Shown here piece by piece: positions 1 through 32,072 of a stretch of 64,000 bases of DNA (position 1 is the stretch's first letter; each line of letters starts with the position of its first letter). Below the pieces are notes generated by a model. It had not been told where the DNA came from, ran no database searches, and saw only the letters and a program-made list of their open reading frames with translations. The position numbers and the translations under genes were made by a program. Source of the DNA: a virus; the IMG/VR virus record IMGVR_UViG_3300020185_000013, positions 32,001 through 96,000 of that record, one strand, 5' to 3'.

Positions 1-2
1 GG

Positions 3-212
3 ACAGATGATTCTGAACCAGCAGTTCGTGGAGAAACACTATCAAAGCTTCTACAAAAAATGCTTGATTTTATTACAACACATACACACACTTCACCAAC
101 AGGACCAACAACGCCTCCACTGCCTCCTGTTTCAATACAGGGTAAAGCACTAAAGAGTCAACTTGGTCAAAATTCAGGAGAGGGTAAAATTAAACAGAAA
201 TCAACACCTTAA
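3..212 (+). CDS. Baseplate central spike protein (gp5/gpV-like), C-terminal end, partial
   Basis: My translation of frame 3, absent from the ORF track: ...EPAVRGETLSKLLQKMLDFITTHTHTSPTGPTTPP...KSTP*. The HxH motif followed by GPT is typical of spike tips. Confidence 0.65.
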   Translation, partial: TDDSEPAVRGETLSKLLQKMLDFITTHTHTSPTGPTTPPLPPVSIQGKALKSQLGQNSGEGKIKQKSTP

Positions 213-213
213 A

Positions 214-1311
214 ATGGCAGATCAAAAAACAGGAGATGATACAGGGGTAGGTACACTTAACGATGGGAATAGTGGAGCACCGACCGGAGCACCTTCTACG
301 CCTTCATTCGGTGGCGGTGGAGGAATACCAACTCCAACCGGAACTCCAGGCGGCTCTGGAACTCCAGGCGGCTCTGGAACACCGGCAGGTACTGGAACAC
401 CGGCAGGTACTGGAACACCAACAGGTACTGGTGGAAACCCAGGTTCTACTGCAACTGCTTCACCACCAAGTCCATTTCCCCCAGGATCTAATTTAAGCGC
501 AGCACTTGATTCTTTTCTAAATAAAGGTGGAGATGGTTTACCTTCATATGAAGATGTCGTCGGTATTTTTATTGCAACTAAAGTTGGAATGAATGAAATT
601 AAAAGACAAAATCCTCAAATTGCAGATGCTGACTTTAAGGTTGAAATTGATAGTTTAAAAGATTACTATATGAATGGTGCTGGAAAAGAGGCACTCGAAG
701 GAAAATATAAAGACTTAAAAGCATCTCTTGGAAAGGCAAAAGAAATAGCAATTAAACTTCCGATTATAGCAACTCAAGCAATTGCAAGTTCAGTTCTTCC
801 AGGTACGATAGGTATTGGAGTTCCTAACTTTGCAAAAATGGCGCTAGACCTAAAAGTAAGTACCGGTCAAATTAAAGAGGTTATTAATGACTTTTTAGTA
901 ACAGTTGCGACAGTATTAAAACTTGCAGGTCAACTTGGTATTTCTAATAGCGGTCCAATTAAGCAACTTGGCAATATTGCTCGACCGCTTTTAAAATCGG
1001 CTCAAAAAATGGACAATGCTGAAAAGAAAGCAGATGCAAAAGAGGAAGAAGCAAATAACCCACAGCCTCCGTTTAAATATGTTATTGGTGATGAAACATT
1101 TACTGAAGCAAGCATTGAAGAACTCTTACAAAAGGAAGAGTTTTCTTATATTACTGGATGGCCACTTTCCGATACAAACATCAGTTCAATGAATGCCCAA
1201 TACAGTACCTTAATTAAATATGGTAATGGAGAAGTTGCAGACCAATTGTTAAAAGAATTAAATGTACTTAAAGCATATGATGCGTGGTATCGAGAAAACC
1301 ACAGTAATTAA
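214..1311 (+). CDS. Hypothetical protein with G/T/P low-complexity N-terminus, probably virion-associated
   Basis: ATG at 214 lies 1 nt after the spike stop, a better start than TTG 163. No family recognised. Confidence 0.6.
   Translation: MADQKTGDDTGVGTLNDGNSGAPTGAPSTPSFGGGGGIPTPTGTPGGSGTPGGSGTPAGTGTPAGTGTPTGTGGNPGSTATASPPSPFPPGSNLSAALDSFLNKGGDGLPSYEDVVGIFIATKVGMNEIKRQNPQIADADFKVEIDSLKDYYMNGAGKEALEGKYKDLKASLGKAKEIAIKLPIIATQAIASSVLPGTIGIGVPNFAKMALDLKVSTGQIKEVINDFLVTVATVLKLAGQLGISNSGPIKQLGNIARPLLKSAQKMDNAEKKADAKEEEANNPQPPFKYVIGDETFTEASIEELLQKEEFSYITGWPLSDTNISSMNAQYSTLIKYGNGEVADQLLKELNVLKAYDAWYRENHSN
340..429 (+). repeat. 5 x 18-nt coding tandem repeat (GTPGGS x2, GTPAGT x2, GTPTGT)
   Basis: ggaactccaggcggctct x2, ggaacaccggcaggtact x2, ggaacaccaacaggtact. 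Confidence 0.9.
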
Positions 1312-1313
1312 CG

Positions 1314-1321
1314 AATATATA
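1314..1321 (+). promoter_or_regulatory. Putative late promoter (AATATATA) before S1 gene
   Basis: Matches the RATAWATA motif recurring before virion genes. Confidence 0.55.
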
Positions 1322-1350
1322 CTTAGTCTCACTTTTTAATTTAAAAATAA

Positions 1351-2640
1351 ATGTCAGAAAACAAAAGAAAGCGCCTAACCAAGCCAATGGCTGGTGAAGC
1401 AATCGTAGAAGAAACAGTAACTGTTGAATCTAACGAAGAAAGAGTAGAAGAAGAATCTTGGTTAAATGAAGATGGAACATTTAACTGGGATGGCTACGAA
1501 TCAACGTGTATTACTAACACTCGAAAACCAAATCCACACATCAAAACTAATGGTAAAGACAGAGTATTCTGTAGAGAACCATATGCCCAAAAACATTACG
1601 ATATTTATGCTGGACATGAAAGTGTTCAAAACATGCGAGTGCATGTAAATGTTGGCGACATCGTTGATGGTAGAGTATATGCAGTTTCTTCAGAATGGAT
1701 GACGCTTGATGTAGATTATCGCGAGATGATTTACGTTAAGTTATCAAAAGAACCTGCACACATACTTGAGGACTACAAACCAGGTGATGAGGTATCAGTA
1801 TTAATCACAAGCGACGGATACGATACTGCAAGTAACAATGCTCACATTACTGGATCTGTTTCGGGTGGTATGAAGCAAAGAGTCTTTAGAGACCTACAAT
1901 CCGGAGTTGATACTGCAGATACTGCATGGGTTGGTAGAGTTAGCCACATGATTGAGAATGGTGGTTATATCGTAGCTATTCAAGGTGTTGAGTGTTTTAT
2001 GCCAGGTTCATTAGCTGGAATTAATAAACTACATGACTTTGAATCTATTATTGGACAAGAAATGTATGTTGTTCCAGTGTCGTTCTCACCAGAAAGAGGT
2101 ACAATCGTAGTTTCTCACCGTAAGTATTTACAAGCAATGATTCCAACCGAGATTCAGAATCTTAAAGCTGCAATCGAAGATAATCATTTAGGTGAAGTAA
2201 CAGGTACTGCTAAATATGGAGTCTTTGTTGAGTTTAATACTTGTCTAACTGGTATGATTCACGTTAATGATTTAGATGAAGAAACAATGAAGAAATTCAA
2301 GGCAAGAGAAATCAAGCCCGGAGATTCAATTAGTTTCTGGATTAAAGACATCATTAGTAACACGAAGATTACACTAAGCCAAAAAGCTGAATCAATTGAT
2401 AATCCATGGTCAGATGTTGACAAAAAGTTCAAAGTACCATGTAATGTTGAAGCAACTGTAAAAACTAAAAAGGACTATGGTCTATTCATTAGCGTTGAAG
2501 AAGGTTTAGTTGGTTTATTGCATGTTAGCGAACTTGAAGATGGAATTATGGATCTATATAATCCAGGTGATAAAATTACCGTACAGATTAATAGAATCGA
2601 TAAGGCTGCTCAAAAGATCTTCCTTAAATTACCAGAATAA
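1351..2640 (+). CDS. rpsA: Ribosomal protein S1 (bS1) homologue, four S1/OB domains
   Basis: Four S1 repeats: VGDIVDGRV, GGYIVAIQGVECFMPGSL, KYGVFVEF..TGMIHVNDL, DYGLFISVEEGLVGLLHVSEL..PGDKITVQINRID. N-terminal FNWDGYE resembles Bacteroidota S1. Confidence 0.85.
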   Translation: MSENKRKRLTKPMAGEAIVEETVTVESNEERVEEESWLNEDGTFNWDGYESTCITNTRKPNPHIKTNGKDRVFCREPYAQKHYDIYAGHESVQNMRVHVNVGDIVDGRVYAVSSEWMTLDVDYREMIYVKLSKEPAHILEDYKPGDEVSVLITSDGYDTASNNAHITGSVSGGMKQRVFRDLQSGVDTADTAWVGRVSHMIENGGYIVAIQGVECFMPGSLAGINKLHDFESIIGQEMYVVPVSFSPERGTIVVSHRKYLQAMIPTEIQNLKAAIEDNHLGEVTGTAKYGVFVEFNTCLTGMIHVNDLDEETMKKFKAREIKPGDSISFWIKDIISNTKITLSQKAESIDNPWSDVDKKFKVPCNVEATVKTKKDYGLFISVEEGLVGLLHVSELEDGIMDLYNPGDKITVQINRIDKAAQKIFLKLPE

Positions 2641-2660
2641 TTTAACACATCTCTGAATGT

Positions 2661-2668
2661 GATATATA
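2661..2668 (+). promoter_or_regulatory. Putative late promoter GATATATA
   Basis: Recurrent motif in an intergenic gap. Confidence 0.6.
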
Positions 2669-2699
2669 CTTAATAAGTGTATAATATCATAATCAGTCG

Positions 2700-4010
2700 A
2701 TGCAGACATTAAATAGAAATTCTGATAAATTGTCAATCTTAAACGCCTCACAGATAGGTGTTGAGTTTGAATTTTATTCTAATCACGGCATAGAAGAAAC
2801 GAGAGATATGCTCAAAGTTCTTCTAGGTCGTGATATTCGTATAGAAACGAAGGCCCACTCTGACTTCCAACCAGACGATAAAACGTTTAAAATGGAACCA
2901 GATATGAGTGGTGGCAAAGGTCTAATCGAGCTGGTTACTGGCGCAGTTCCATACAGAAATGCAAGGATCATGATTATTAAGATGCTTGGATGGATTAGAG
3001 AAAATGGCTACACAACTGAAAGATCTTCAATTCACCTAAACCTTTCATTTCAGAAAGACTTCTTAGATGATAAGAATACCATTTCAAAAATGAACACCCT
3101 TAAGTTTATTCTTGAATTTAATGAAGATCAAGTTTACAAGCTTTTCCCAAATAGAAAAGATTCGATTTATGCTAAGTCGATTAAATGGGTAATGCCAAAG
3201 AATGAATCGTTTTATTTTGACGGTTCATTAATTTCTCAAATGAACTTTAACTTCCCAAATACTAAGTACTACGGAATAAACTTTGATAAGAAGATTAAAA
3301 ATTACTTAGAATTTAGATATATTGGAGGAAAAGATTACGAACACAAGCAAGATAGTATTTTGTATCTTGTTGATCGATTTATTGTTCAAACGTGGAAATC
3401 ATGTTCAGAACCTGAGTTCACTGAAACTAATAAAATCGAACTGAAGAAGATTCTTAATAAGAATTTACCACTTAGAGAAATACTCAGCAATTACACAAAC
3501 TTAAAGAAGCACTATCCAAGTATTGATGTTATGGTAGACTTACAAGAAGTAGATGCTGTGATTAGATTACAATGGGATCGAATTAAAAACAAAATAGTTT
3601 CTTTAATCTCACTTGGTGGTATGGTAGAGGGTATCATTAATTATGATTCTGATATTGGTCGAGTACAGGTTAAAGATGGAAAGTTTCCAGTATGCTATGA
3701 AATTGATGGAGTAGATTTAATTGATTGTCATGTAAATGGAAACGTTTTTAATTCAAACATGCATAACAGTGAGGTTACAAGATCAGTACTTAAAACATGT
3801 AATCTGTATAATGGCACTGAGGTTTCAGACTCTAAGATTGAATCTTCTTATGTACATGCAAGCTGTACTGCTAAGAACTGTTATGTGTTTGGTAGGGGTG
3901 GAATTTTTAAAGGTAAAATGATAGGTGGAATCTTCAGGGAAGGATTCATCGATGATAATACAAGATTTGACGAAACAGAAGTTGTCGTCAGTAAAAAAAT
4001 AAATTCGTAA
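2700..4010 (+). CDS. Putative amidoligase (COOH-NH2 ligase fold) with C-terminal beta-helix-like region
   Basis: Motifs IGVEFEF, IELVTG, SSIHLNLS, KYYGINF, LEFRY. Confidence 0.65.
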   Translation: MQTLNRNSDKLSILNASQIGVEFEFYSNHGIEETRDMLKVLLGRDIRIETKAHSDFQPDDKTFKMEPDMSGGKGLIELVTGAVPYRNARIMIIKMLGWIRENGYTTERSSIHLNLSFQKDFLDDKNTISKMNTLKFILEFNEDQVYKLFPNRKDSIYAKSIKWVMPKNESFYFDGSLISQMNFNFPNTKYYGINFDKKIKNYLEFRYIGGKDYEHKQDSILYLVDRFIVQTWKSCSEPEFTETNKIELKKILNKNLPLREILSNYTNLKKHYPSIDVMVDLQEVDAVIRLQWDRIKNKIVSLISLGGMVEGIINYDSDIGRVQVKDGKFPVCYEIDGVDLIDCHVNGNVFNSNMHNSEVTRSVLKTCNLYNGTEVSDSKIESSYVHASCTAKNCYVFGRGGIFKGKMIGGIFREGFIDDNTRFDETEVVVSKKINS

Positions 4011-4011
4011 A

Positions 4012-4851
4012 ATGAGCGAAATTAGAAGTGGTACTAGTGGATTAAGCACTCCAAGAGATTTTGGAACAGACTGTGAAAATGCATTCTTAGATGAATTAGC
4101 AGACGATATCACTGGAGCATGTATGGTTCCAGTAAATCTTCCAACTAGAGAAATCATGAACATTATTAAAAGAGCTAGAAAATGGTTCTATAAGAACTAT
4201 GAATATTCGGTAAGAGAAAACTTCTTCCATATTCCACATAATGTTTTTGAAACTGAATACTTTAGAAAAAATAGATCGGTTTATTTACCAGACACGTCAA
4301 GTACTGGAGCAGGTCAAGTATTCTCAGTTTTTGGACTATGGGATCTTTCTAGTGGATGGAATGGTGGTGGATCTGGACTAGACATCAGATTTACATCATT
4401 AGGAGATTTTGGAATGGAAAGAATGATGTTTAAAGGAGCATATTCTGGTTCTGGTTCAGCTGATTTTGCAGAAAACCTACAGTACTATGTAGTTAATAGA
4501 TCTCTATTCGATCTTTCAAGACAAATCTTAGAAAACCCAATTACATTCTCATTCTCTCAATTAACTGGAGAACTTAAGTTTTTAGGAGACACTCCAAAGG
4601 GTGATGTAATTATTAATGTATATGAAACCATTGAAGATTGTGCACTATACAGCGATGAAATCTTCTTTAGATATTGCTCAGCAAGAATTAAACAGTCTCT
4701 AGGAGCTAAACTTGGAATCTTTAAGTTTGCACTTCCTGGAAATGTTGACTTTGATTATGACGCGATCAAATCAATGGGAGACGAAGAATTAGCAGAAATT
4801 AAAGAGGAAATCAAGGGCGACGAAGGAGTTGACTGGATGTTCCACGGCTAA
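4012..4851 (+). CDS. gp13: Neck protein, T4 gp13-like
   Basis: C-terminal RYCSARIKQSLG..FALPGNVDFDYDAIKSMGDEE matches the gp13 pattern. Confidence 0.7.
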   Translation: MSEIRSGTSGLSTPRDFGTDCENAFLDELADDITGACMVPVNLPTREIMNIIKRARKWFYKNYEYSVRENFFHIPHNVFETEYFRKNRSVYLPDTSSTGAGQVFSVFGLWDLSSGWNGGGSGLDIRFTSLGDFGMERMMFKGAYSGSGSADFAENLQYYVVNRSLFDLSRQILENPITFSFSQLTGELKFLGDTPKGDVIINVYETIEDCALYSDEIFFRYCSARIKQSLGAKLGIFKFALPGNVDFDYDAIKSMGDEELAEIKEEIKGDEGVDWMFHG

Positions 4852-4867
4852 TTATAATAAATAGAAT

Positions 4868-5224
4868 ATGGAACTGTATATTAAGACCATTGGCGACCCC
4901 AATCATAATCCAACTGAAGTTCATTCAAAAAATGAAATTGACCAGTTGATTACGCAGATTGAAACTATCCTCTTCACTAATAAAGGAGAGGTCTTAGGGG
5001 ATTCTGATTTTGGTTGCAGTTTAAATGACCTACTATATGAACTTAATGCAAATGAGTTCGTTGTAAAAAATGAAATAGACAAACAAATAGCAAGATATTG
5101 TCCACTTGCTTCTAAATATAGAGTCGACGCTGAAGTTAATTTTATTAGAGGAGAGGTAAGAGACGAAGCATTTATTGACATTACAATCGATAGCCAATAT
5201 ATGATATCAGTGTCAAGTTTATAA
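4868..5224 (+). CDS. gp25: Baseplate wedge subunit gp25-like
   Basis: IETILFTNKGEVLGDSDFGCSL..LLYE signature, 118 aa. Confidence 0.85.
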   Translation: MELYIKTIGDPNHNPTEVHSKNEIDQLITQIETILFTNKGEVLGDSDFGCSLNDLLYELNANEFVVKNEIDKQIARYCPLASKYRVDAEVNFIRGEVRDEAFIDITIDSQYMISVSSL

Positions 5225-5239
5225 AAAATTAATTAGATA

Positions 5240-7069
5240 ATGGCCGAACAAAAATTTCTAAATAAGACGAGGATAATTGCTTCTCAGATCTTTGATGATA
5301 CTAGAACTTATATTTCTAGAATCTACAAAAGATCAGGCACTTTATTCACTAACGCTTCGCCCTTTGCTCAAATCCTGAGGGTTCTTTCAGAGATTTCTGA
5401 GCTATTATTATTCTATGTTGAAGATTCTACTGTAGAACAAAACATATACACAGCACAACAATCAGAATCAATCTATGGACTTGCTAGACTTGCTGGACAT
5501 GATGCAACTAGAGGATTTGCGGCTACTGGTGAACTTGCAATTAGAATCAACCCACAGTCAGGTGCCCTAACTAATTTAGCAGGAGATGGGATCTCGATTC
5601 CAGCAAACACTGAACTTAAATTTGATGCAAACGGACTTTCTTATATGCTAAGAACATCAAGAGATGCATTTAGAATTAATAAGAATCAAAGAGAACAAAT
5701 TAAAGTTGTTATTGTACAGGGTAGATCAGAAACTCAAAGTGTTACTGGTGATGGTGAATCATTTCAAAGTTACAATATTCAAACTGGAGGAACAACAGAT
5801 CATAACCTAGTAAAAGTATCGGTTAACGGAGAACAATGGACTAAATTCAATTCAGTTTATGAAATGAATGCCGGAGATAAAGGGTTTATTGTTAAAACTG
5901 GTATCAGTGGAGGTTTAGATGTTTACTTTGGTACTAATAATTTTGGTACAATTCCAGTTAATGGTTCTATTATTGATATTGAGTACATTATTCATGATGG
6001 GGCAAACGGTAATATTGAAGATGCTGAAGACTTAACAATTAAATGGATTGATGAAGGTCAAGATAGTGCCGGTAACTTTTATGACCTAAACGAAATCCTG
6101 TCAGTTGAAGTTACATCATCTCCGAAAATGGGAGCTGACCCAGAATCTACTGAGTTTACAAAGGTAATTGCACCACTTGCGTCAAAGTCATTTGTATTAG
6201 CAACTCCAGATAACTATGAGTACTTCCTATCAAGATATGGTATTTTCTCATATATTGATGCATACAATACCGCTGATGATGGTTATATCGACGATGACAA
6301 TGTAATCTATATTTTTGCAGTACCTGATATTAAGAGAAAACTTGCAAAGAATCAAGACTACTTCTCAATTCCACAGCAAGAAATGTTCTTTGACCAGAAT
6401 GAATATGATAAAATGACACAGGTTCTACAAGATAGTGGTCAAATGATGGTTACAACTGAAGTTAAATTTGTTAAACCACAGGTTAGAAAATATGCAATGG
6501 ATATTTCAGTTAGATATTTTGAAGGGTTTAGTAAAGAAAACATTGCAAATGATATTAGAGTAGCAATTTCTGAATACTTATTAAATATCACAAGAAGGGA
6601 TAAATTACCGAAGAGTGATATTATTTATATCCTAGAAGGAATTGAAGGGGTTGATGCAGTAAACGTTCAATTTAGAAGCGAAACTGAAGAAACTGCTAGA
6701 AGACTAGGTTACTATGAATCAGTTACAACTACAATTGCAGCACAGGAACCAGTAACGCTTGAAGATATTGGTAATGGTAAACAAAAGTACGTATTCTTTA
6801 AGAAAATTGAAGAGGTTACTAAAGTGAATGTTGCTGAAAATGATTCAATTCCAGCCGATATTGTAGGTCTAGATCAATGGGGTGATATTATCCTAGACAA
6901 AGAAGAAATTGCAGTATTCAGAGGAGGTTGGCAAGATCGCGATGGGGATGAAATCAAAGATGAGCCAGCAATTAATGAAGAATCATGTCTTTCTATAAAC
7001 TTCGATGGTACTCCAGTACCAAGAAAGATTTATACAAGAGTACAGACATCAAATAGAAAAGCACTATAA
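5240..7069 (+). CDS. gp6: Baseplate wedge protein gp6 / baseplate J-like
   Basis: SIYGLARLAG, VYFG..NFG, VLATPDNYE; directly after gp25. Confidence 0.75.
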   Translation: MAEQKFLNKTRIIASQIFDDTRTYISRIYKRSGTLFTNASPFAQILRVLSEISELLLFYVEDSTVEQNIYTAQQSESIYGLARLAGHDATRGFAATGELAIRINPQSGALTNLAGDGISIPANTELKFDANGLSYMLRTSRDAFRINKNQREQIKVVIVQGRSETQSVTGDGESFQSYNIQTGGTTDHNLVKVSVNGEQWTKFNSVYEMNAGDKGFIVKTGISGGLDVYFGTNNFGTIPVNGSIIDIEYIIHDGANGNIEDAEDLTIKWIDEGQDSAGNFYDLNEILSVEVTSSPKMGADPESTEFTKVIAPLASKSFVLATPDNYEYFLSRYGIFSYIDAYNTADDGYIDDDNVIYIFAVPDIKRKLAKNQDYFSIPQQEMFFDQNEYDKMTQVLQDSGQMMVTTEVKFVKPQVRKYAMDISVRYFEGFSKENIANDIRVAISEYLLNITRRDKLPKSDIIYILEGIEGVDAVNVQFRSETEETARRLGYYESVTTTIAAQEPVTLEDIGNGKQKYVFFKKIEEVTKVNVAENDSIPADIVGLDQWGDIILDKEEIAVFRGGWQDRDGDEIKDEPAINEESCLSINFDGTPVPRKIYTRVQTSNRKAL

Positions 7070-7341
7070 TGGAATCTTTATATAAAGGACTATTAAAATA
7101 TAAACTAAAGAAGCTTTATTCTAGCAGAAAAACTAGAAAGGATAATCGTTTAAACTTAGGTTATGATTACTCTGAAAGTTTGATGCAAAGAAACATGTCT
7201 TCTCATGTTCTGAGAAACCAGACAATAAGCGACTTTATTAGTTTTATTAATGATTATTTAATGAATCTAATCCGATCAATAAAGATGATGCAACAGTACA
7301 AAAACTATACTGTTAAAAAAGACGACACAAACGTTAAATAA
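7069..7341 (+). CDS. Small hypothetical baseplate-module protein
   Basis: Coupled by TAATG overlaps on both sides. Confidence 0.55.
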   Translation: MESLYKGLLKYKLKKLYSSRKTRKDNRLNLGYDYSESLMQRNMSSHVLRNQTISDFISFINDYLMNLIRSIKMMQQYKNYTVKKDDTNVK

Positions 7342-10070
7342 TGTTTGATAACTTAAAGATATTTAAAGGAACTGATCATGTTCTAGATACAACAGTAGAC
7401 CAGAATGGTGTACTGAAAACTTCTGTGTATCTTGATGAGGTTTCTACTGGACTATATGAGTCGGCAACATTATTCTTTTTAGAAGATGTTGAATATAATA
7501 GTGTTCGCTATTTAAATAGACCACTATCAGACACTCAAACTGCAGGTGAATTTGTATTCAAATGGAAAAATGATTCTTATTCCTCAGATGATCTGATAAT
7601 GTATACTGCAAAGGTTGAAAATGGGTTGACCAAAATTAACGTTGAAACTAATCAGCAAATTTCAATCCTTGATAATTCAACTGTTACCAGTACAATCAAT
7701 GGAGTAAAGCAGGTTTCAAGCGTAAATAATGAGGCGGTACAAGTTAACGTTGCTCTTAATTCTGAAGATGAAGGAAGACACGAGAACACCCTTCTAGTGT
7801 ATTATAACGATGGAGCAACAAGTACACACATTGCGAGTATCTTTTTCTACGGTGAGGTTGTAGGTGAAGATGAGAGGTTAAGAGTCCTATTACAAAACTT
7901 AGGAGCCAGTCTAGATGAAGGTGACTTTATCTTATTTAAGGAGCATGATATTACTGAAATGGCTCCTGACTATATTTTATTAAACCAAAAAAGAAGAGAG
8001 CTCTTATTAGAATTAGCAAACATAAAACCATTTATTGGAACTTACAAAGCTATTCTAAATGCAATTGATTTCTTTGGTTATAATAATTTGACCCTAAAAG
8101 AGTATTGGTTAAACATTAATACTGGAAGTAGTTCATTTGGTAAACTACACGCAATTCCAGTAACAGGTTCAAGTCAATATGGAGATGCGGTTAGAAAAAA
8201 GATTAGTGTTGAGGTTCCTTCAAGCAACCTAAAGAAAACCAGTAGGTTTAGTTTGGTATACCGTTTAAATGTTGTCAATGGAGAATATGATGAATGGGAT
8301 TACCCAAAGGTTGAAGAAGTTTTTGAGTTTACGCCAGAAGAGGTACTAATTAAGTTATATGGTCTAAAGTCAAAGTTACAGAGAGAATACCTTCCATTAA
8401 ATGCTAAAATTATTGATATTGTTGCTGAAGGTGATTACTTTACACAAAAGAACCTAAACATTTGGAATAACCAAAATGCAATTGCCTTCTTTACTGAAGG
8501 ACATGACATTGATTTTGAGCTATTCCCAACACAACGAAAACTATTTATTGAGGACGTATCACTAGTCTTAAAGAAAGTGTACGATCCAAATAATATTACA
8601 AGTGGAGATTACCAAAAGTATCATGATTTATTAGCAACTGATTTTAGTGAGTATGGAAACTTAACTAACGATCAACTTGCTGATTTAAGAGAGGCAATTG
8701 AGCTATTCTATGCTGGCTATTATAATGATGAGTTAGAAACATTCAATGAGGATATTGAAATTGGATGTCCAGTAATTCTTGACGGTGAAACAACATTTAC
8801 TCAAAGCTGGGAAGAGGCTCAATTTACATGGCAAGATGCAATCGATCCACAAGTTACTTGGAATAACTGGTGGAAGCGTTGGGTATATGAAGTTGAATGG
8901 ATTATTACTGGTCCAAAAGGACTAAGATATGAATTTAAAGGAGACATTGATAACTATTTAAGGTTCCCTGTTTTCTTACCATATGAAGGGTCATATAATG
9001 TTGAAATGAGAACATTTGACCTATTTGGTCACAGATCATATGATGTTAAATATGGTTTAATCGAAGTTGGTTTAAAAGAGGTTGAGTTCTATGGATTCTA
9101 TAAAACTCTTAGAAAAAATACTTGGAATGACAGAGAATCGGTTTCTTGGAAAGAAGTTGGTGGATATTGGGATCTTCCAGTACATAATCCAAACAAGATT
9201 GAAGAATCAAATACAAGTTGGTACTTAGCACTTGACCGAAATAATTATGTTCACGATCCAATCGAAGGACAGAGCGATGATTTTACGACAGTTTCAAGAT
9301 ACGTTGATATTTTCTCAGAGACTGGTTATTCTGAAACTACAGGTCCTTACTACTGGAATAGCGCTAATTATACTTGGAACAATACATCTGATTTATGGTG
9401 GGATGCAACTAGAATCGGATCAGATTTAGCAGCTTCATTTAAAATAGAACCAGTATTTACAGGAAACCCAGTAATTTCGATCGATCATAAAGATCCGATA
9501 ACTGGTCAAATTATATCAGATTCATATCAAATAACTTCTGCAAACCCAGGAGCTAATACTAATATAGCGGATTGGCAAACAGTTGTTGATGAATTAAATA
9601 CATCGACTAATCCAATTATTAGTAAATTTATCTACAATTTAGTCGGTAAAGACAATGATGGTGATGGAGTAGTCGACGTAGTTGCATTTATTCTTGCAGT
9701 TGGTAAAGAAACTAATAAGTACCACGACTTTGAAAGTGTATCGATGTTAGGCGGAACTATTAGTGGAGAGGTACATCAAGTAACCTATAATCCTAACTAC
9801 GATGAAATTGATATCTTTAGTGACTGGAGAATGGTAAATAAATCAACACATATTACATTCTCTCCGGATTATTCAAAGATGCCAGGAATGAAATTGAAAA
9901 AATGGACGATTACCAATAATACATACCCTGATAATAGTGATATATATTATGGTGATATAGTGTTAACATATCTCTTTAGGAATCCAGGAAACTATACAAT
10001 CTCACTAGAGGTTGAAGATACTAATGGAAATGTTAACTCAACACATAGAAACATATTAACAGTAAAATAA
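7341..10070 (+). CDS. Baseplate wedge-like structural protein with C-terminal PKD/Ig-like domain
   Basis: IGTYKAILNAIDFFGY resembles gp7/tail-I type segments. Ends YLFRNPGNYTISLEVEDTNGN (PKD-like). Confidence 0.55.
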   Translation: MFDNLKIFKGTDHVLDTTVDQNGVLKTSVYLDEVSTGLYESATLFFLEDVEYNSVRYLNRPLSDTQTAGEFVFKWKNDSYSSDDLIMYTAKVENGLTKINVETNQQISILDNSTVTSTINGVKQVSSVNNEAVQVNVALNSEDEGRHENTLLVYYNDGATSTHIASIFFYGEVVGEDERLRVLLQNLGASLDEGDFILFKEHDITEMAPDYILLNQKRRELLLELANIKPFIGTYKAILNAIDFFGYNNLTLKEYWLNINTGSSSFGKLHAIPVTGSSQYGDAVRKKISVEVPSSNLKKTSRFSLVYRLNVVNGEYDEWDYPKVEEVFEFTPEEVLIKLYGLKSKLQREYLPLNAKIIDIVAEGDYFTQKNLNIWNNQNAIAFFTEGHDIDFELFPTQRKLFIEDVSLVLKKVYDPNNITSGDYQKYHDLLATDFSEYGNLTNDQLADLREAIELFYAGYYNDELETFNEDIEIGCPVILDGETTFTQSWEEAQFTWQDAIDPQVTWNNWWKRWVYEVEWIITGPKGLRYEFKGDIDNYLRFPVFLPYEGSYNVEMRTFDLFGHRSYDVKYGLIEVGLKEVEFYGFYKTLRKNTWNDRESVSWKEVGGYWDLPVHNPNKIEESNTSWYLALDRNNYVHDPIEGQSDDFTTVSRYVDIFSETGYSETTGPYYWNSANYTWNNTSDLWWDATRIGSDLAASFKIEPVFTGNPVISIDHKDPITGQIISDSYQITSANPGANTNIADWQTVVDELNTSTNPIISKFIYNLVGKDNDGDGVVDVVAFILAVGKETNKYHDFESVSMLGGTISGEVHQVTYNPNYDEIDIFSDWRMVNKSTHITFSPDYSKMPGMKLKKWTITNNTYPDNSDIYYGDIVLTYLFRNPGNYTISLEVEDTNGNVNSTHRNILTVK

Positions 10071-16331: not shown

Positions 16332-19300
16332 ATGGCATTCAGTACAAGAATATATTTTAAAGATATATTGAGTGATCCGAGCCTATTATGCTCAGGCCCT
16401 CATGACACCCCGGTTAACCTACAATCAGATGGTTCTGGTAAATTCATTGTGTTCTATAATGAACAGAATGCTTTATTAGTTGGACTAAATGATAGTGCAA
16501 GTATAATTGATTTAGGTCTTAATAACATTGAGATTTATCGCACTCAAATTCTTGCGGATCAAAATGATCCTACTGGATATGCTGAAGCAGGGTACTATGC
16601 TTCTACTGAATTTGATGGAACAAATACTGTAAGTACTACAGTTTATCCATATAATAATGGATCTTGGGGTCAACCCACATTATGTCAAGCATCTTCAGGA
16701 ACTTCAGGAACTAGTGGAACTTCAGGAACTAGCGGAACTTCGGGAACTAGCGGAACTTCGGGAACTAGTTCAAACGTTAAATCATTTCAGATTTACTACA
16801 CATCATCGACCGGATCAAATGGAGATTATTGTCAAGGTACTAGTATTAAAAATCTTTATTATGATGGTGCTTCAACTTTTAGTACAATTGAGCAAATTAT
16901 ATACGCTCACGTTACTGGAGCTATTACTTTAAAGATTTATACAGGCCCTGGGAATCCACCAAGTGCTTCACAAATAACTGATTTAAATGATATTAATCAG
17001 ACAGGTCCACTAGCTATTCTGGACCTTACACCTGGTGAATATGGAGACGTTATTGATTATTTCTATATTAATATAGATGGAACACAAAATGGTTGGCAGC
17101 ATGGTTCTGGTGCAAACATAGATTATACAAGTACTATACTAGTTCCAACTTCTGACCCTGGATCTACAAAACAAAGCGCTTTAGCGGCAGGTTGGATTCC
17201 ATTCTATTGTCCAAATTCTGGAGCTAGTTCAATTATACTGAATTATGGATCAGATTCAACGGCATTCTGTGGAACTCCAACTAATTCAACTTATTACTAT
17301 TACACTGGACCTGGAGGTCCAACGTATAACACAGTCGATGATTTAGTATCGAACGGTATTAGAATATGGAATAATGCAAATTCAGCAGTAAGTGGATTAG
17401 ATCCTAACTATACGACTGATTTAGCAGCTACTGGTGTATATTCACACTTAAGTAGTTATGGATATGGGTTTGATAATAATACTGGAACTTGGTTCCAATC
17501 AAAGATAACATGTGCGCTAGTTGGAGACCCAGAACCAAGGGCAATTGATATTACAGTTGCACAATGTACTGAATATGGAGAATTTGTAGGATTCTGTCAT
17601 TATCCAAAGTCTATAGTTCAAGTCTTTTATATGTCAACAGTTGACTTAACGCTTCTTGAAATCGTTCAGTCAAACATTTACCTATATACTTCAGCGGATG
17701 CGGCTGAAAATACAGATTATAATGAGTTAATAAGCTATCAAGCATTTGGAGATGCTCAAAATAGTATTCCATCTACCCAATACTTTATTTGGACAGGATC
17801 TTTTTATTTAGGTAAGAATCCAACTAATGGTACTGAGAGAAGTGACGATCCAACCGCTAATATTACTCAAGGACATCAATGTCAAACAGTTTCAAGAACT
17901 ACACCATTTAGTACAGAAGTTCTAAACACTGGAGGGTATAAAAAGTTCTATGCATTCTATCAATGTGGAAGTGCAACAATTGGACAAAGTGCAAATTCTT
18001 TCCCGGTTTATGTTATTGATGCAGACGTAACTTTAAATGAAGAGAATTATATTACTGATTTTGTTGGTTTCTTAAATCAAAATAATAAAAAGACTTTTGC
18101 AGTTAATAGTTGTAAATGTGTTGAGTATATTCATACAATTTATGCTAATACTGAAAATGAGGCAAAAGTACTTCTAGAAAATTATTATGACAGAGTAGTT
18201 TCTGAGGATCCTGCAAATCTTGGTATATTTAGTGAAAGCGAAGTGTTAGTATATGACGATTGTACTGATTGTTCATCGAATACTGACCCTTTATCTTATA
18301 AATTTCCTTTTGTTGAAGAGGCTGTTCCACCAACACCTGGACCAAACTTAGATACTGAGAAAAACTATCAACTTGATAATGTTTCAAAACCATTACTTAG
18401 AACTAATCCAAAACTTAGCACAAATGTTAAGATGGTGGTTGATTCAGAGGGTAGAATATACTTAGATTCGATTAATGCAAATCAAGGCTTATCGAATACT
18501 AGCTACAAAAAGTACGAGTTAAGTTCTGATTCTAGATATGCATATGACCTATCAAGATACTATAACGAAAACAATACACCTTTAGATTCTGCGTTTGATA
18601 CGAAAAGAGATTACTCTGATTTTTCAGTGCTTGATGACTATTCAAAACAGTTCGAGGAAGATTATCAATACGGTACTAAGCTGAACGCTTCTAAGCTATA
18701 CTCAGAAGACTTTAGGATGATGGCGCCAATTTGGTTGGATGTTAATATGCCTAAAAAGTTCGTGATCTACAGGGTTGAGGATCCAACACCAGAATTTGAC
18801 TATACTGAGGGTGCTACTGATAAGCTAACTAGAGTTACTAGAATGATTAGAAATTCTAGAATAGTTAAAGTGTTTGATTTAAGTAGTAGCTCTTCGATTG
18901 GTAAATACTTAAGAAATCACGTTCAAGATGAATTCTTCCCAGACTCTCCGCTTACGGTTACAATGGAGAAAAATCAAAAATCAAATTTCAATGGAATTGA
19001 TTTGGTTAAGGGTGGATTCGTTGAGAAAGGCGAATATATTTATGATGATTTTGTCAAGCAAGACACTACCTTAATAGATGCAAACAATTTTATAACTGAT
19101 GGTTTTAGAAGAAATAAAGTTGCATGTGCTAATCTAATTAATTTAGAGTTCATGTTTAATGACACAACCGCAACTGACTATTCAGTTAACAGATATTTTG
19201 GTTTATATGTTGACGACTTAGATTCAGGTATTGGTGAAATATCGAACATTAAAAATGGTCTGGTTAGATTTAAGAATATTGAATCATATTTACAAGGTAA

Positions 19301-22300
19301 CGATCCAACATATGCTATTCCAGAATACAGCTTATTACAAAGTGCTGGAGTACTTGCATATGCTAGAATTAAAGAGAACTTCTATAATTTAGATAGTTCA
19401 AATGCATATAATGCTAATCGTTATAATGTTGCAGTTAAAGCGACTGACGAAGAAATTAATTCTAAACTTGGTATTAATAGTAAGGACGTTTCAGTTCAAA
19501 TTAAACCTAACGAAACTGCAGGTGGAGACTATTTAAAAGCAACTGTAATTGATATTCCAGGAAACAATGATTTATTTAGAGTAACTGCAGTTAAGAGAGA
19601 AGCAGTACGTTTAAAAATCGTTGCAAATGTTGGTGGAGAAACTGTTAGAATTGAAGACGCTCTAGGCAATTACATTGATTTTACAATGGGTGCAACTGGA
19701 AGTATTTCTTGGGCAAACTTTGAAGCAGCATGGAATTCAGTCAATCAAACATCTCCACAGCAAACAATTGAATTCTACAATAGATATGAGTTAAGTGTAG
19801 AAGCAGATAGTACGCAAATTAACAGTATTGTTCTTAGAGAAAGGTCGGCTAATCTAGTTGACAATGGTATTTTTGTAACCACTGTAACTTCAATTATTGG
19901 AGTTAAAGAAATCTACACAAATGTTAACCAAACAATTGGTACATTTAGAGCAGATAATACTGGAAGTTTAGGAAAAAGAAAGTTTAACAAAGACTTTTTC
20001 TCGACAATTGGTGAAAAGAGTGATGTAGCGTTCGCAATCGCAGGTGCAATCAGAAACTATACGGACTTTGATGCGTATAGTGTGAATGAATATGTGTATA
20101 TTATTAGTGAAGTGAACGGCTATCAACTGATGAACTGTACGTTACTCGTAGCAGATAGTAATCAAATAGATTTTATTACTGCCGAAAATAGTGACACTAA
20201 TAATGAATTAAACTTAAGTTCTGATCTAACTTTAAATTACTCAAGTTATTTCTTTAACGGTGGACATTCTGCTGGAAAGTCAGTATATGTTGATTCAAAT
20301 GTAGTTTCTCAAATTCAAGCCGGAGATTACTTACCTACTAAATATAGTGGTAAATATAATTTAGTATTGGATGTTGTTGAAGATACAACTGAAAGGTCTG
20401 GTAATTTTAATAAGATAATTTTACAAGACAAATCATCGCTAACTGCTGGCAATTACAATGTGTTCTCTAAGAATTTAATGGCTCTTGGATTATTCTCGGC
20501 GTATGATATTCACGACATGAACTTTGATTTCTACGATACTTCAAATTCTGAACTAAAAGAATTAAAGTACGAGACTAGAGAAAATATGGACTACGAGCCA
20601 TATGAACAAGCAGTACTAGGAGTTGGTAATATTTTACCAGACAATGTAATTTCTGAAGATTTCTTACTGAACCCAATTGAGTATTTTGCTAATCTTTTAC
20701 CTGTTTTAGGTGGAGAGGACTCAAAAACTCTTAAAGTTGATAGAATCTCTTCAGAATACGATAGATTAAAAGAAAACTACCTCAAAGAATACTCAACTGA
20801 TTCAAGAGTCGTGCCTAACATTAATAAGTGGGTCCTAAAGGATATGTTAAATGTTAGAGAGCAACCATATTACTTAAATACTAATGAGGCATTTGGTAAA
20901 ACAAACTTCTCACCAGATATTACGGTTGAGGGTAGAAATAGAGATGCATTCTCACATGAATGGTTCTATTTAGATAAATGGCCAGAATACTTAACATATA
21001 ATCAATACAATGATGGTTTTAGTTATATTGATTTTGTAGAAGGATTTGATGTTACAAAAGATATTTTTAAGAATGTCGACCATGATTATTTTGATCGATT
21101 CATGGTTTCAGAAGGACATGAACTTGTGGTACCGTTTATTGACCCATTAGATCCAACTCAGAATAAAGAGACTATATTCTACACTAAAACCGAATTGACT
21201 AAAAAGTACACTCCAATTAAAGGTGGTAGTGATATTGATTTTGCAAGTACAATCTTTAAAGGTCTTAAATTTGAATTTAAGAAAAGAAAGGACGGTTCAA
21301 GTCAAAACACTGCAGAGTTTGTTAAGAATTCTGAATTTAATAACTACAGATTCTCGACACTTGTTAAGGTAAATACAAATGCTGATACTAATAACATTGA
21401 ATATGAGTTTATTAAGAACGATAAGTTCGAATATGTTATATTCTTTATTCAGTTAAATATTGAAGACTCATTTATTGGCGATTATATTAATAGAAAGTAC
21501 TTATATGAATTAGAGCATAAGGTTGTCGTTGATACGGATCAAAATGGTCAAAACTTCTACCGATATGCTGATGTTAATATTGATGGTGCAATTGAACTTT
21601 CTTCAGTTAACTGGGCAGCACAGGGTCCATATACTCTAAAGGGTGTTATTCATAATGATGGTTCTTCTCCTGCATTCTCTAATCAAATGCCATCACAAGA
21701 GGATGGTACATATGGAAGGTTAAAAATTGACTATGGATTAGGCGGAGATTTCTATATGGATGTTGTTAAGGTTATTAGTATTGACCAACTTCAAGTCTTA
21801 GGAGCTCCTTACACTGTTGATAGTTTAGGCGTTAAGCAACCAGTAAATCCATACACTATTCCATATCAAGCTCAGTTAAACGCTAAATATGTTTACGAAG
21901 GTGGTGGTGTTAATGCACACGAATTATTATTATCACAACTTTCAGCAAATAAAGTTTTTGATAAGGTAAATAACAATTCAACTGAAATTAAGTACACTAC
22001 AATTTTAGAAGACGGTACTGAACTTACTAACCAGTTCTCAGTTAGAATGGATGATGGTAATGAAATTATTAAGCATTCTAAACTGGTTACCTCGATTGAT
22101 GGAGACACTCCAAAAAGTTACAAACTTAAAAAGGAAACTATTGGATATGTTATCGAAGACGGAACTGAATATTATCCGTTCTTAATTAGACACAATGGAA
22201 GGTATACCGTTGATTTAACTCCGGTAGTTACATTTACTGATATTTATGGGTTCAACAAGGTAATTAGAGACCAGTTAACCTATGATACTGGGTTTAAAAT

Positions 22301-23222
22301 GTTCAAAGAACCGGTTTATAAACTAAATCTATCAACCAACTACGATGTAAATAAATCACTAGCATTTTATAATAGGTACAATAGAATGGGTACTGCATTT
22401 AACGTTGGATTTATTAGTGACGAAGGGATTCATGATGCTAAATGGGGAAAGATTAAAAACCATTTCTACCATAAGGTAAATGAAATCAATACGCTTGGCG
22501 TAACTAAACTTTCAGAAAGCAGTGAATACTTACCACAATACCCATTAATTAATGAGGTTACAATTGATAAAAGAGATATTAATGTCTTCAAGTCTTCATG
22601 GGAAAATAACTATTATGTTAGATCTCTAAGTGGAGGAGATACTGAATTGGTACCTGGTACGATTTCAACTCTTGAAGAAAAATCATACCTTGGTTCTACT
22701 GTAATAAAATACAAACCATCGTATTCGATTTATGAATTTACATCGACTTCTGTGAATTCTGCATCTGATTTGGATGTTATATTGAAAAACAATTCAAATA
22801 AAACAGACGTTGTCTATTTTGAAGATGATAATAATTTGATTGTTGACTTCTATTTAGGAGGAATCGCAGCAAAAACAATTGGTGAAGATGGGTTATTTGA
22901 AACTATTCAAAAGTTTGTCGATCCAGCAAACAGTGCAGGAGATAAAACAACAATTGATGACGATGTAACATTGTATGCTGCTAACAATATGGTTGGACTA
23001 TACAGACTTGATGATATTCAAATCTATGTTAAAGAGTACAAAGGCTCTCCATCAGAAGTAGTTTCAGCAGATAGTATTGATACAATCGACAATGGGTATA
23101 CTAAAGCAAGCGATTTTACATATCAATTACATGGTAAAAAGCCACTAAATTTTAGACTAATATATAATAAAAAGTTAGGCTATTCATATAGCATGAAGGC
23201 GCTGATAAAAATACAAGCATAA
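16332..23222 (+). CDS. Giant (2296 aa) virion structural protein
   Basis: Uninterrupted ORF with a Cys-containing N-terminal third and an SGT linker; structural context. Confidence 0.55.
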   Translation: MAFSTRIYFKDILSDPSLLCSGPHDTPVNLQSDGSGKFIVFYNEQNALLVGLNDSASIIDLGLNNIEIYRTQILADQNDPTGYAEAGYYASTEFDGTNTVSTTVYPYNNGSWGQPTLCQASSGTSGTSGTSGTSGTSGTSGTSGTSSNVKSFQIYYTSSTGSNGDYCQGTSIKNLYYDGASTFSTIEQIIYAHVTGAITLKIYTGPGNPPSASQITDLNDINQTGPLAILDLTPGEYGDVIDYFYINIDGTQNGWQHGSGANIDYTSTILVPTSDPGSTKQSALAAGWIPFYCPNSGASSIILNYGSDSTAFCGTPTNSTYYYYTGPGGPTYNTVDDLVSNGIRIWNNANSAVSGLDPNYTTDLAATGVYSHLSSYGYGFDNNTGTWFQSKITCALVGDPEPRAIDITVAQCTEYGEFVGFCHYPKSIVQVFYMSTVDLTLLEIVQSNIYLYTSADAAENTDYNELISYQAFGDAQNSIPSTQYFIWTGSFYLGKNPTNGTERSDDPTANITQGHQCQTVSRTTPFSTEVLNTGGYKKFYAFYQCGSATIGQSANSFPVYVIDADVTLNEENYITDFVGFLNQNNKKTFAVNSCKCVEYIHTIYANTENEAKVLLENYYDRVVSEDPANLGIFSESEVLVYDDCTDCSSNTDPLSYKFPFVEEAVPPTPGPNLDTEKNYQLDNVSKPLLRTNPKLSTNVKMVVDSEGRIYLDSINANQGLSNTSYKKYELSSDSRYAYDLSRYYNENNTPLDSAFDTKRDYSDFSVLDDYSKQFEEDYQYGTKLNASKLYSEDFRMMAPIWLDVNMPKKFVIYRVEDPTPEFDYTEGATDKLTRVTRMIRNSRIVKVFDLSSSSSIGKYLRNHVQDEFFPDSPLTVTMEKNQKSNFNGIDLVKGGFVEKGEYIYDDFVKQDTTLIDANNFITDGFRRNKVACANLINLEFMFNDTTATDYSVNRYFGLYVDDLDSGIGEISNIKNGLVRFKNIESYLQGNDPTYAIPEYSLLQSAGVLAYARIKENFYNLDSSNAYNANRYNVAVKATDEEINSKLGINSKDVSVQIKPNETAGGDYLKATVIDIPGNNDLFRVTAVKREAVRLKIVANVGGETVRIEDALGNYIDFTMGATGSISWANFEAAWNSVNQTSPQQTIEFYNRYELSVEADSTQINSIVLRERSANLVDNGIFVTTVTSIIGVKEIYTNVNQTIGTFRADNTGSLGKRKFNKDFFSTIGEKSDVAFAIAGAIRNYTDFDAYSVNEYVYIISEVNGYQLMNCTLLVADSNQIDFITAENSDTNNELNLSSDLTLNYSSYFFNGGHSAGKSVYVDSNVVSQIQAGDYLPTKYSGKYNLVLDVVEDTTERSGNFNKIILQDKSSLTAGNYNVFSKNLMALGLFSAYDIHDMNFDFYDTSNSELKELKYETRENMDYEPYEQAVLGVGNILPDNVISEDFLLNPIEYFANLLPVLGGEDSKTLKVDRISSEYDRLKENYLKEYSTDSRVVPNINKWVLKDMLNVREQPYYLNTNEAFGKTNFSPDITVEGRNRDAFSHEWFYLDKWPEYLTYNQYNDGFSYIDFVEGFDVTKDIFKNVDHDYFDRFMVSEGHELVVPFIDPLDPTQNKETIFYTKTELTKKYTPIKGGSDIDFASTIFKGLKFEFKKRKDGSSQNTAEFVKNSEFNNYRFSTLVKVNTNADTNNIEYEFIKNDKFEYVIFFIQLNIEDSFIGDYINRKYLYELEHKVVVDTDQNGQNFYRYADVNIDGAIELSSVNWAAQGPYTLKGVIHNDGSSPAFSNQMPSQEDGTYGRLKIDYGLGGDFYMDVVKVISIDQLQVLGAPYTVDSLGVKQPVNPYTIPYQAQLNAKYVYEGGGVNAHELLLSQLSANKVFDKVNNNSTEIKYTTILEDGTELTNQFSVRMDDGNEIIKHSKLVTSIDGDTPKSYKLKKETIGYVIEDGTEYYPFLIRHNGRYTVDLTPVVTFTDIYGFNKVIRDQLTYDTGFKMFKEPVYKLNLSTNYDVNKSLAFYNRYNRMGTAFNVGFISDEGIHDAKWGKIKNHFYHKVNEINTLGVTKLSESSEYLPQYPLINEVTIDKRDINVFKSSWENNYYVRSLSGGDTELVPGTISTLEEKSYLGSTVIKYKPSYSIYEFTSTSVNSASDLDVILKNNSNKTDVVYFEDDNNLIVDFYLGGIAAKTIGEDGLFETIQKFVDPANSAGDKTTIDDDVTLYAANNMVGLYRLDDIQIYVKEYKGSPSEVVSADSIDTIDNGYTKASDFTYQLHGKKPLNFRLIYNKKLGYSYSMKALIKIQA
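16695..16766 (+). repeat. 8 x 9-nt coding repeat (SGT)8
   Basis: (tca/agt/agc/tcg)ggaact repeated eight times. Confidence 0.9.
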
Positions 23223-31869: not shown

Positions 31870-32072
31870 AAGATATTACAGATATGGTTGAAAAGGATCT
31901 AGATGATTTTTATAGTGATCGTGACCGATTTAAAGGTATGCGAATGCTGGTAGATTTCAACGCATCAGAATACGAACATGATGTACCGAAGCTTGATCTT
32001 GGAAAACCAAAATTTAAGAAGAAGTTAAAGGCTAGTAAGTTCATTAAAGGTAATAAGGGTTCGTTGTTTTAA
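31857..32072 (+). CDS. Small hypothetical protein (start uncertain)
   Basis: Fills the gap between primase and uvsY; basic tail ending GSLF. Confidence 0.5.
   Translation: MVYIEDITDMVEKDLDDFYSDRDRFKGMRMLVDFNASEYEHDVPKLDLGKPKFKKKLKASKFIKGNKGSLF

Follow-up and report, generated by a model that had tools for sequence, protein, structure and literature searches.

Phage homologues of ribosomal protein S1 (bS1) have been reported before, and the gene described here belongs with them. It encodes a 429-aa protein at positions 1351-2640 (+ strand) of the 64,000-nucleotide stretch that we analysed (the window), which covers positions 32,001 to 96,000 of IMG/VR virus record IMGVR_UViG_3300020185_000013. 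The closest described systems are in huge phages. Al-Shayeb et al. (2020, PMC7162821) report S1 in these phages, describe its carriers as rarely having Shine-Dalgarno (SD) sequences, and suggest that ribosomes are hijacked; they also describe true ribosomal protein S1 (rpS1) status as hard to confirm. The hijack idea for huge phages is already in print, and the window S1 is a well-supported case of a gene type already reported there; it opens no new kind of system. What the analysis adds is that a phage "possible rpS1" is placed as a bS1 homologue that appears to have kept the docking parts, that it is a fixed and apparently late gene of a common marine phage lineage, and that candidate docking residues can be named.

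Other phages supply partial parallels. The Microcystis jumbo phage PhiMa05 also carries a bS1, proposed as a replacement for the host copy (PMC13157829); according to that account it groups with a cellular Vampirovibrio-like lineage and looks like a host-derived acquisition, whereas the window S1 falls in a deep virus-only clade. A different protein that also acts in small-subunit initiation, bS21, is phage-encoded as well (Mizuno et al. 2019, PMC6375957; Chen et al. 2022, PMC9723584), being reported in phages of Bacteroidota-type hosts and tied to late replication. Mizuno et al. (PMC6375957) describe leaving the S1 domain out of their survey as ambiguous, and cite earlier virome hints of both bS1 and bS21. 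No description of S1 in marine flavobacterial phages turned up in our literature search, and the word "ribosomal" is absent from the main text of a "moraphage" paper on large Flavobacteriia phages (PMC12619734). A paper on retron Eco2 deals with host S1 as a chaperone and was set aside as irrelevant.

On the cellular side, translation in Bacteroidia begins without Shine-Dalgarno pairing, and a central part in this is ascribed to bS1. The first 42 residues of Flavobacterium johnsoniae bS1 are described as forming a helix-loop-helix on uS2 and uS8 of the 30S subunit (Arpin et al. 2026, PMC13000457), and an aromatic stretch at residues 11-20 (FLANFNWHNF) as the part that contacts uS8 (PMC13000457).

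The "possible rpS1" of huge phages and the S1 of Lak phages (LR756500, LR745206, LR756501, MK250019) are, like the window protein, multi-S1-domain proteins from genomes without SD sequences. They match it at 28-35% identity in tblastn (E 1e-61 to 1e-27) and form one clade with it (16 rows, support 100, FastTree). The N-terminal elements of the Lak-A2 protein come in the same order, an FNW motif being followed by K-V-F-S-H-E and a Y-A-Q-E-L-Y-D helix. Unlike those records, ours is a 130,479-bp linear record of a marine lineage (35.9% G+C, an estimated ~46% complete, with nearly all genes on the + strand), and here S1 is documented as having a fixed place in the baseplate block and a late promoter of its own. 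The phage is large, uncultured and marine, and its hosts are probably of the Flavobacteria type. The original prediction, made from the letters of this stretch alone, held that a shortened S1 replaces host S1 late in infection and redirects ribosomes to phage leaders. We lean toward a plainer account, in which the viral S1 would dock at the bS1 site of the host 30S subunit late in infection and help SD-less late messages to initiate; that ribosomes are redirected selectively to phage messages has no support.

Homology to bS1 and the N-terminal anchor

The gene is an intact open reading frame (ORF) with an ATG start, the coordinates above including the stop codon. Pfam S1 matches its product with 83 bits over three stretches, and a PHROGs search returned no family for it. 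Each of the NCBIfam bS1 equivalog models gives one colinear match (for example, residues 93-425 to positions 39-371 of 580), and in a phmmer search of PDB sequences residues 97-427 align to residues 16-346 of Escherichia coli bS1, that is, to domains D1-D4. An AlphaFold2 model built on an alignment of 64 family members has a predicted local distance difference test score (pLDDT) of 86 and a predicted template modelling score (pTM) of 0.67, and contains four five-stranded barrels at about residues 104-169, 193-255, 279-343 and 364-426. All of the nine best Foldseek matches to this model in the PDB are bS1 chains or organellar homologues of S1 (E 1e-27 for the best), and other S1-domain proteins, such as RNase R and NusA, rank far lower. 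PDB entries 28jw and 9tvu were considered as a phage protein and rejected; they are the Chlamydomonas chlororibosome S1 homologue. The four S1 domains read from the sequence by the original prediction are borne out, and in the comparison with non-ribosomal S1-domain proteins that it called for, the model alignments, phmmer and Foldseek all point to bS1. Judged by alignment and predicted fold, the protein is a true bS1 homologue and not a generic S1-domain protein.

D1 (aa 97-170; window 1639-1860) aligns to E. coli D1, with five modelled strands at 104-169, and D2 (aa 190-257; 1918-2121) carries an F-M-P-G-S signature matching the F-L-P-G-S of cellular D2. D3 (aa 276-345; 2176-2385) and D4 (aa 361-427; 2431-2631) are of the canonical S1 RNA-binding type; D3 is matched by Pfam S1 and keeps the Y-G-x-F and H positions of E. 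coli D3, and D4, with the best Pfam S1 stretch (366-425), closes the protein. The description of the gene as shortened relative to a six-domain host bS1 also holds: in sampled Bacteroidota genomes a bS1 match reaches model position 513-515 of 516 in 61 of 61 and 31 of 31 cases, one of them split across contigs. The four-domain S1 of low-GC Gram-positive bacteria (NF005208, PRK06676) has the same number of domains and a similar length (residues 93-426 align to 10-346 of 391), but the window protein scores 124.7 bits against an NF005208 cut-off of 368, and the one Bacillota bS1 sampled has no FNW anchor (0/1) and falls among cellular bS1, outside the viral clade.

Ahead of D1 lies the part of the protein that bears most directly on the ribosome. 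A tail (aa 1-40; window 1351-1470) opens with a basic M-S-x-x-K-R-x-R start, in which R6 and R8 are invariant in family alignment A2, and continues as an acidic, low-confidence stretch; residues 1-33 are modelled as disordered, with pLDDT below 50 at 1-5 and 9-33. The FNWDGYE motif follows (aa 44-50; 1480-1500), with a short helix predicted at 46-50, and is by sequence the counterpart of the F. johnsoniae FLANFNWHNF stretch and so of the Bacteroidia bS1 helix that touches uS8. A K-V-F/Y-S-x-E type segment specific to the virus family (aa 69-76; 1555-1578) precedes an E-x-Y-A-Q-x-x-Y-D type helix (aa 77-93; 1579-1629), modelled as helices 79-88 and 90-93, which MAFFT places on the N-terminal, uS2-binding helix of cellular bS1.

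For comparison we took bS1 from genomes of the GTDB class and phylum of a Flavobacteriaceae metagenome-assembled genome (MAG) that carries a relative of the viral protein. The pattern [FIVLYWM][DN]W occurs upstream of D1 in 23 of the 26 class-level (Bacteroidia) bS1 alignable at D1. It is found in none of 28 proteins of the phylum-wide sample, none of three from other phyla, and one of 36 unlabelled long bS1, a poor match. A stricter pattern matched 5/30 in the class sample. The motif in the N-terminus that the original prediction called Bacteroidota-like thus matches a signature of bS1 from class Bacteroidia.

The viral protein resembles Bacteroidia bS1 (F. johnsoniae, as described in PMC13000457) in having an FNW-type helix, a second helix and then D1-D4, in the F-x-P-G-S signature of D2, and in its SD-less setting with A-rich leaders. 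It differs in ending before D5-D6, in scoring only 92-135 bits in phmmer, in not being nested within Bacteroidia in the tree, and in carrying about 20 extra residues between the FNW motif and the 77-93 helix. Those residues include the segment at aa 69-76, which is conserved in alignments A1-A3 and has no counterpart in the Bacteroidia N-termini compared. Within the viral family the motifs G-V-E-C-F-M-P-G, Y-R-E-M and Y-A-Q-x-x-Y-D vary little or not at all. Retention of the N-terminal docking elements of bS1 is thus supported in silico.

A complex was predicted from viral S1 residues 38-190, with the family alignment, and the uS2 of F. johnsoniae (Swiss-Prot RS2_FLAJ1). It scored 0.70, against 0.01 for the best of three controls; 58 of 80 solved complexes attain the mark by which such scores are read, as do 2 of 110 mismatched pairs. 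Contact agreement across three runs was at least 75%, and partner pLDDT was at least 73. The predicted interface takes in viral residues 58, 69-74, 82-97, 110-128 and 163-165, which are the conserved segments of the family, and its lowest-error contacts pair the aa 69-76 strand with uS2 residues 33-36. The docking by structure prediction that had been suggested for this protein was in this way carried out on uS2. From the conserved motifs and this model we infer that the viral S1 binds the 30S subunit.

Late-type promoter class, leaders and core-gene status

The S1 gene is preceded by a late-type promoter-like motif of the DATATATA class at 1314-1322 (+ strand), 37 nt before its start. In the 130-kb record the motif occurs 36 times on the + strand and twice on the - strand. 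Of the + copies, 26 are intergenic in a record that is 95% coding; 28 fall no more than 100 nt upstream of a called start, mostly 25-45 nt before it. The motif is also found ahead of the genes for the portal, prohead protease, major head protein and tail sheath, and where the baseplate block begins. All 33 distinct relatives keep a copy upstream of S1, at a distance of 34-51 nt from its start. The late-type motif at 1314, first picked out from the sequence alone, has become a member of a promoter-like class shared with structural genes. A second promoter-like class consists of a T-rich stretch, then TATGTC, then 8-16 nt, then TTTATATT; its 10 strict copies, all on the + strand, lie in small-ORF regions of the record contig (G000:C1 11.8-16.3 kb and 118-130 kb), and looser copies precede window position 35659 and G000:C1:100367, just beyond the window end. 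This is probably the early class. None of its strict copies lies in the virion block, and no early-type promoter was found near S1. Late timing of S1 is what this promoter assignment would predict.

The S1 leader itself (1323-1350), read directly, is U/A-rich, has no SD core, and is kept among relatives. Conservation of the leader suggested an autoregulatory element, an idea we dropped because the leader of the next gene is equally conserved; that gene (2700-4010) has a late-type motif of its own at 2661-2669 (+), also conserved in relatives. Over 148 crude gene calls, GGAG occurs at -18 to -4 in 2.0%, compared with 5.0% of 3000 random sites, and the frequency of A rises to 0.59 at -3 and to 0.57-0.63 at -11 to -13. 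Leaders that are A-rich and free of SD sequences, as originally proposed, are seen in both measures, and the leader quoted at that time for a capsid gene is present, the gene being that of the major head protein. F. johnsoniae leaders carry A at -3, -6, -12 and -13, a pattern cited in PMC13000457. The phage A pattern is the same as the one reported for F. johnsoniae, and hence we found no feature that sets phage leaders apart from host leaders.

In metatranscriptomic data, short contigs from four marine or estuary libraries of two studies are identical to parts of window 1213-2099 and to parts of the neighbouring baseplate genes. Within window 1-8000, the parts of S1 so matched are 1351-1506, 1588-1774 and 1868-2099.

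Within the baseplate block S1 is one of the fixed core genes. Two genes upstream of it lies a spike-OB gene of the Phage_base_V family (PF04717, 30.6 bits), and downstream follow, in order, a 436-aa gene, an adaptor-like gene (phrog_211, E 4e-9), a gp25-like gene and a gp6-like gene, in agreement with the position between spike and neck genes first assigned to it. Those four downstream neighbours are present in 81, 80, 78 and 77 of 81 S1-anchored loci, the misses being short loci. Conversely, a search anchored on gp6 finds S1 in all 62 loci with room upstream (61 full matches, one partial). The gene sits on viral DNA and is not a cellular contaminant, since portal, head, sheath and baseplate genes stand on the same record, relatives are encoded by 560 IMG/VR contigs, and the single close match among species genomes is on a contig with the phage's order of baseplate genes downstream of S1.

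Proposed docking on the host ribosome and competing explanations

The account we favour runs as follows. S1 would be transcribed from its own late promoter alongside the virion genes, and its product would dock at the bS1 site of the host's 30S subunit by means of three N-terminal elements: the FNW helix on uS8, the virus-specific strand, and the conserved helix with D1 on uS2. D3-D4 would then hold A/U-rich, SD-less leaders and so favour efficient translation when demand for structural proteins is at its peak, to the presumed benefit of phage translation. A large and abundant family of phage S1 proteins has kept the lineage-specific anchor of the host protein, and its members are natural variants with which to study both the docking of S1 on the 30S subunit and its choice of A-rich leaders.

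Several observations weigh against this account. The curated bS1 cut-offs are missed by far (153.1 against 524 bits for NF004952, 129.4 against 577 bits for TIGR00717), so that the protein would not be named rpsA under the NCBI rule. D5-D6 are absent. Some 2.8 changes per site separate the viral clade from all cellular bS1, and function may have drifted over such a branch. Over D1-D4, phmmer does not bring Bacteroidia bS1 any closer than other groups (median 110 bits for Bacteroidia, 130 and 141 for the others). The FNW residues fall outside the predicted uS2 interface, in a model with uS2 alone; this fits the published uS8 role and is no test of it. The pass of the complex prediction may stem from likeness to S1-uS2 structures already solved, and the uS2 used is an F. 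johnsoniae stand-in for that of the phage's own host. Finally, no more than 16% of the sampled words occur in the RNA-library contigs, and DNA carry-over is possible, so that these contigs are no proof of transcription, timing or strand.

The divergence from cellular bS1 is also what one would expect if the protein works off the ribosome, as an RNA chaperone, a protector of late mRNA or a cofactor of a phage enzyme, with an N-terminal likeness that is merely ancestral. D3-D4 are canonical RNA-binding S1 domains, and host S1 already serves T4 RegB and Q-beta replicase; extraribosomal uses of S1 by phages are reviewed in PMC13157829. A free RNA binder, however, would have no need of a lineage-specific uS8/uS2 anchor, and this anchor is kept across Lak, huge-phage and marine members; the best-conserved motifs of the virus family are D1-D2 and the N-terminal docking elements, and they map to the predicted uS2 interface. 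We regard a role off the ribosome as unlikely, though deserving to be kept in view beside docking on the 30S subunit.

The record also encodes a bS21 homologue of 63 aa (G000:C1:9238-9429, outside the window; L172 1492-1683), matched by PF01165 with 42.4 bits (cut-off 27); by profile match, then, the phage carries both S1 and S21. The bS21 gene follows a gene for a 269-aa protein with an N-terminus that looks by eye like a J domain (DnaJ-like), and an 89-aa ORF. One might imagine the two as a matched kit for the 30S platform and mRNA exit, in which the phage's own bS21 and a viral S1 that grips uS2 more tightly through strand 69-76 would convert host ribosomes, late in infection, into a phage-specific form without S1 D5-D6. 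Such a kit is plausible because the order of the bS1 N-terminus depends on bS21 in F. johnsoniae: truncation of bS21 is reported to leave the bS1 N-terminus disordered, and SD-less initiation is then no longer stimulated by bS1 (PMC13000457). We nevertheless hold it as a speculation that is rather improbable.

Selective take-over, in which the viral S1 displaces host bS1 and the ribosomes come to prefer phage over host leaders, shares all of the docking evidence. The additional uS2 contacts predicted for strand 69-76 and the presence of bS21 on the same record would suit it, and loss of D5-D6 could alter the choice of mRNA. Against this stands the leader comparison, which gave no difference between phage and host, the A pattern being that of F. 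johnsoniae genes, and we judge take-over to be more doubtful still. That S1 is packed into particles, injected, and active at the onset of the next infection seems very improbable, for the late-type promoter, the fixed place between spike and baseplate genes and the conserved basic start followed by an acidic disordered stretch would allow it, but gene position is by itself weak evidence and the N-terminal start recurs in no other protein of the record, giving no sign of a common targeting signal.

Relatives, origin and other features of the record

By its place in the trees, the window S1 is part of an old, monophyletic group of four-domain phage S1 proteins. Relatives group into more than 120 clusters of proteins 420-435 aa long, with 55-90% identity, drawn from marine and other metagenomes; the sources of the lineage itself are marine (Tara and marine metagenome). 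Alignment A1 proved too diverse to scan the collection with, and a narrower one took its place. In an exhaustive profile-free search many proteins of 360-450 aa rank before any cellular bS1. A quick IQ-TREE analysis of 117 rows places 25 short proteins in one clade with support of 100, apart from 92 cellular bS1, with Bacteroidia bS1 in a clade of their own (support 95). FastTree puts inside the viral clade the S1 proteins from three huge phages, the one from Lak-A2 (Prevotella host) and one from a rumen contig. That rumen member, of 380 aa (36% identity), lies on a 43-kb contig binned with an Erysipelotrichaceae rumen MAG (Bacillota), and represents either a mis-binned phage contig or a family that reaches beyond Bacteroidota hosts.

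A Bacteroidia origin of the viral S1 was considered and dropped, as phmmer shows no preference for Bacteroidia and the tree offers no donor. Joining the viral and Bacteroidia rows is not rejected (45-row subsample, log-likelihood difference 8.98, p = 0.212 in the approximately unbiased test). We draw a link to Bacteroidia because of the N-terminal anchor, the SD-less leaders and one MAG. Across 185,579 species genomes there is one close match (53% identity), on a 57.7-kb contig of a Flavobacteriaceae MAG, where the same four baseplate-block genes lie downstream of S1; the MAG also has its own long bS1. It is the one genome of the 61 sampled Bacteroidota with the short form, and gives a weak hint of the host.

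The genes on either side of S1 (214-1311 upstream and 2700-4010 downstream) have no family match. The upstream one, for a 365-aa protein with a Gly/Pro/Thr-rich front, is the sole variable member of the block: a homologue is found in 4 of 73 related loci with at least 1.5 kb upstream. Since it follows the spike-OB gene, its product may be a swappable spike-tip or host-range part. The downstream one, the 436-aa gene with its own conserved late motif and no Pfam or PHROG match, stands directly after S1 in 81/81 relatives.

Farther along the window, a 2296-aa ORF at 16332-23222 lies behind a late motif, its sole match being the uncharacterised phrog_31887, and a 616-aa protein at 23224-25074 has collagen-like tail-fibre matches. 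Collagen-like Gly-X-Y coding repeats also occur at the contig start (G000:C1:1-100). The record carries five tRNA genes (Arg-TCT, Trp, Ser-GCT, Ile-GAT and Tyr), at G000:C1:116854-116928 and 129634-130476; four of them cluster at the very end of the contig, and the record therefore breaks inside a tRNA array.

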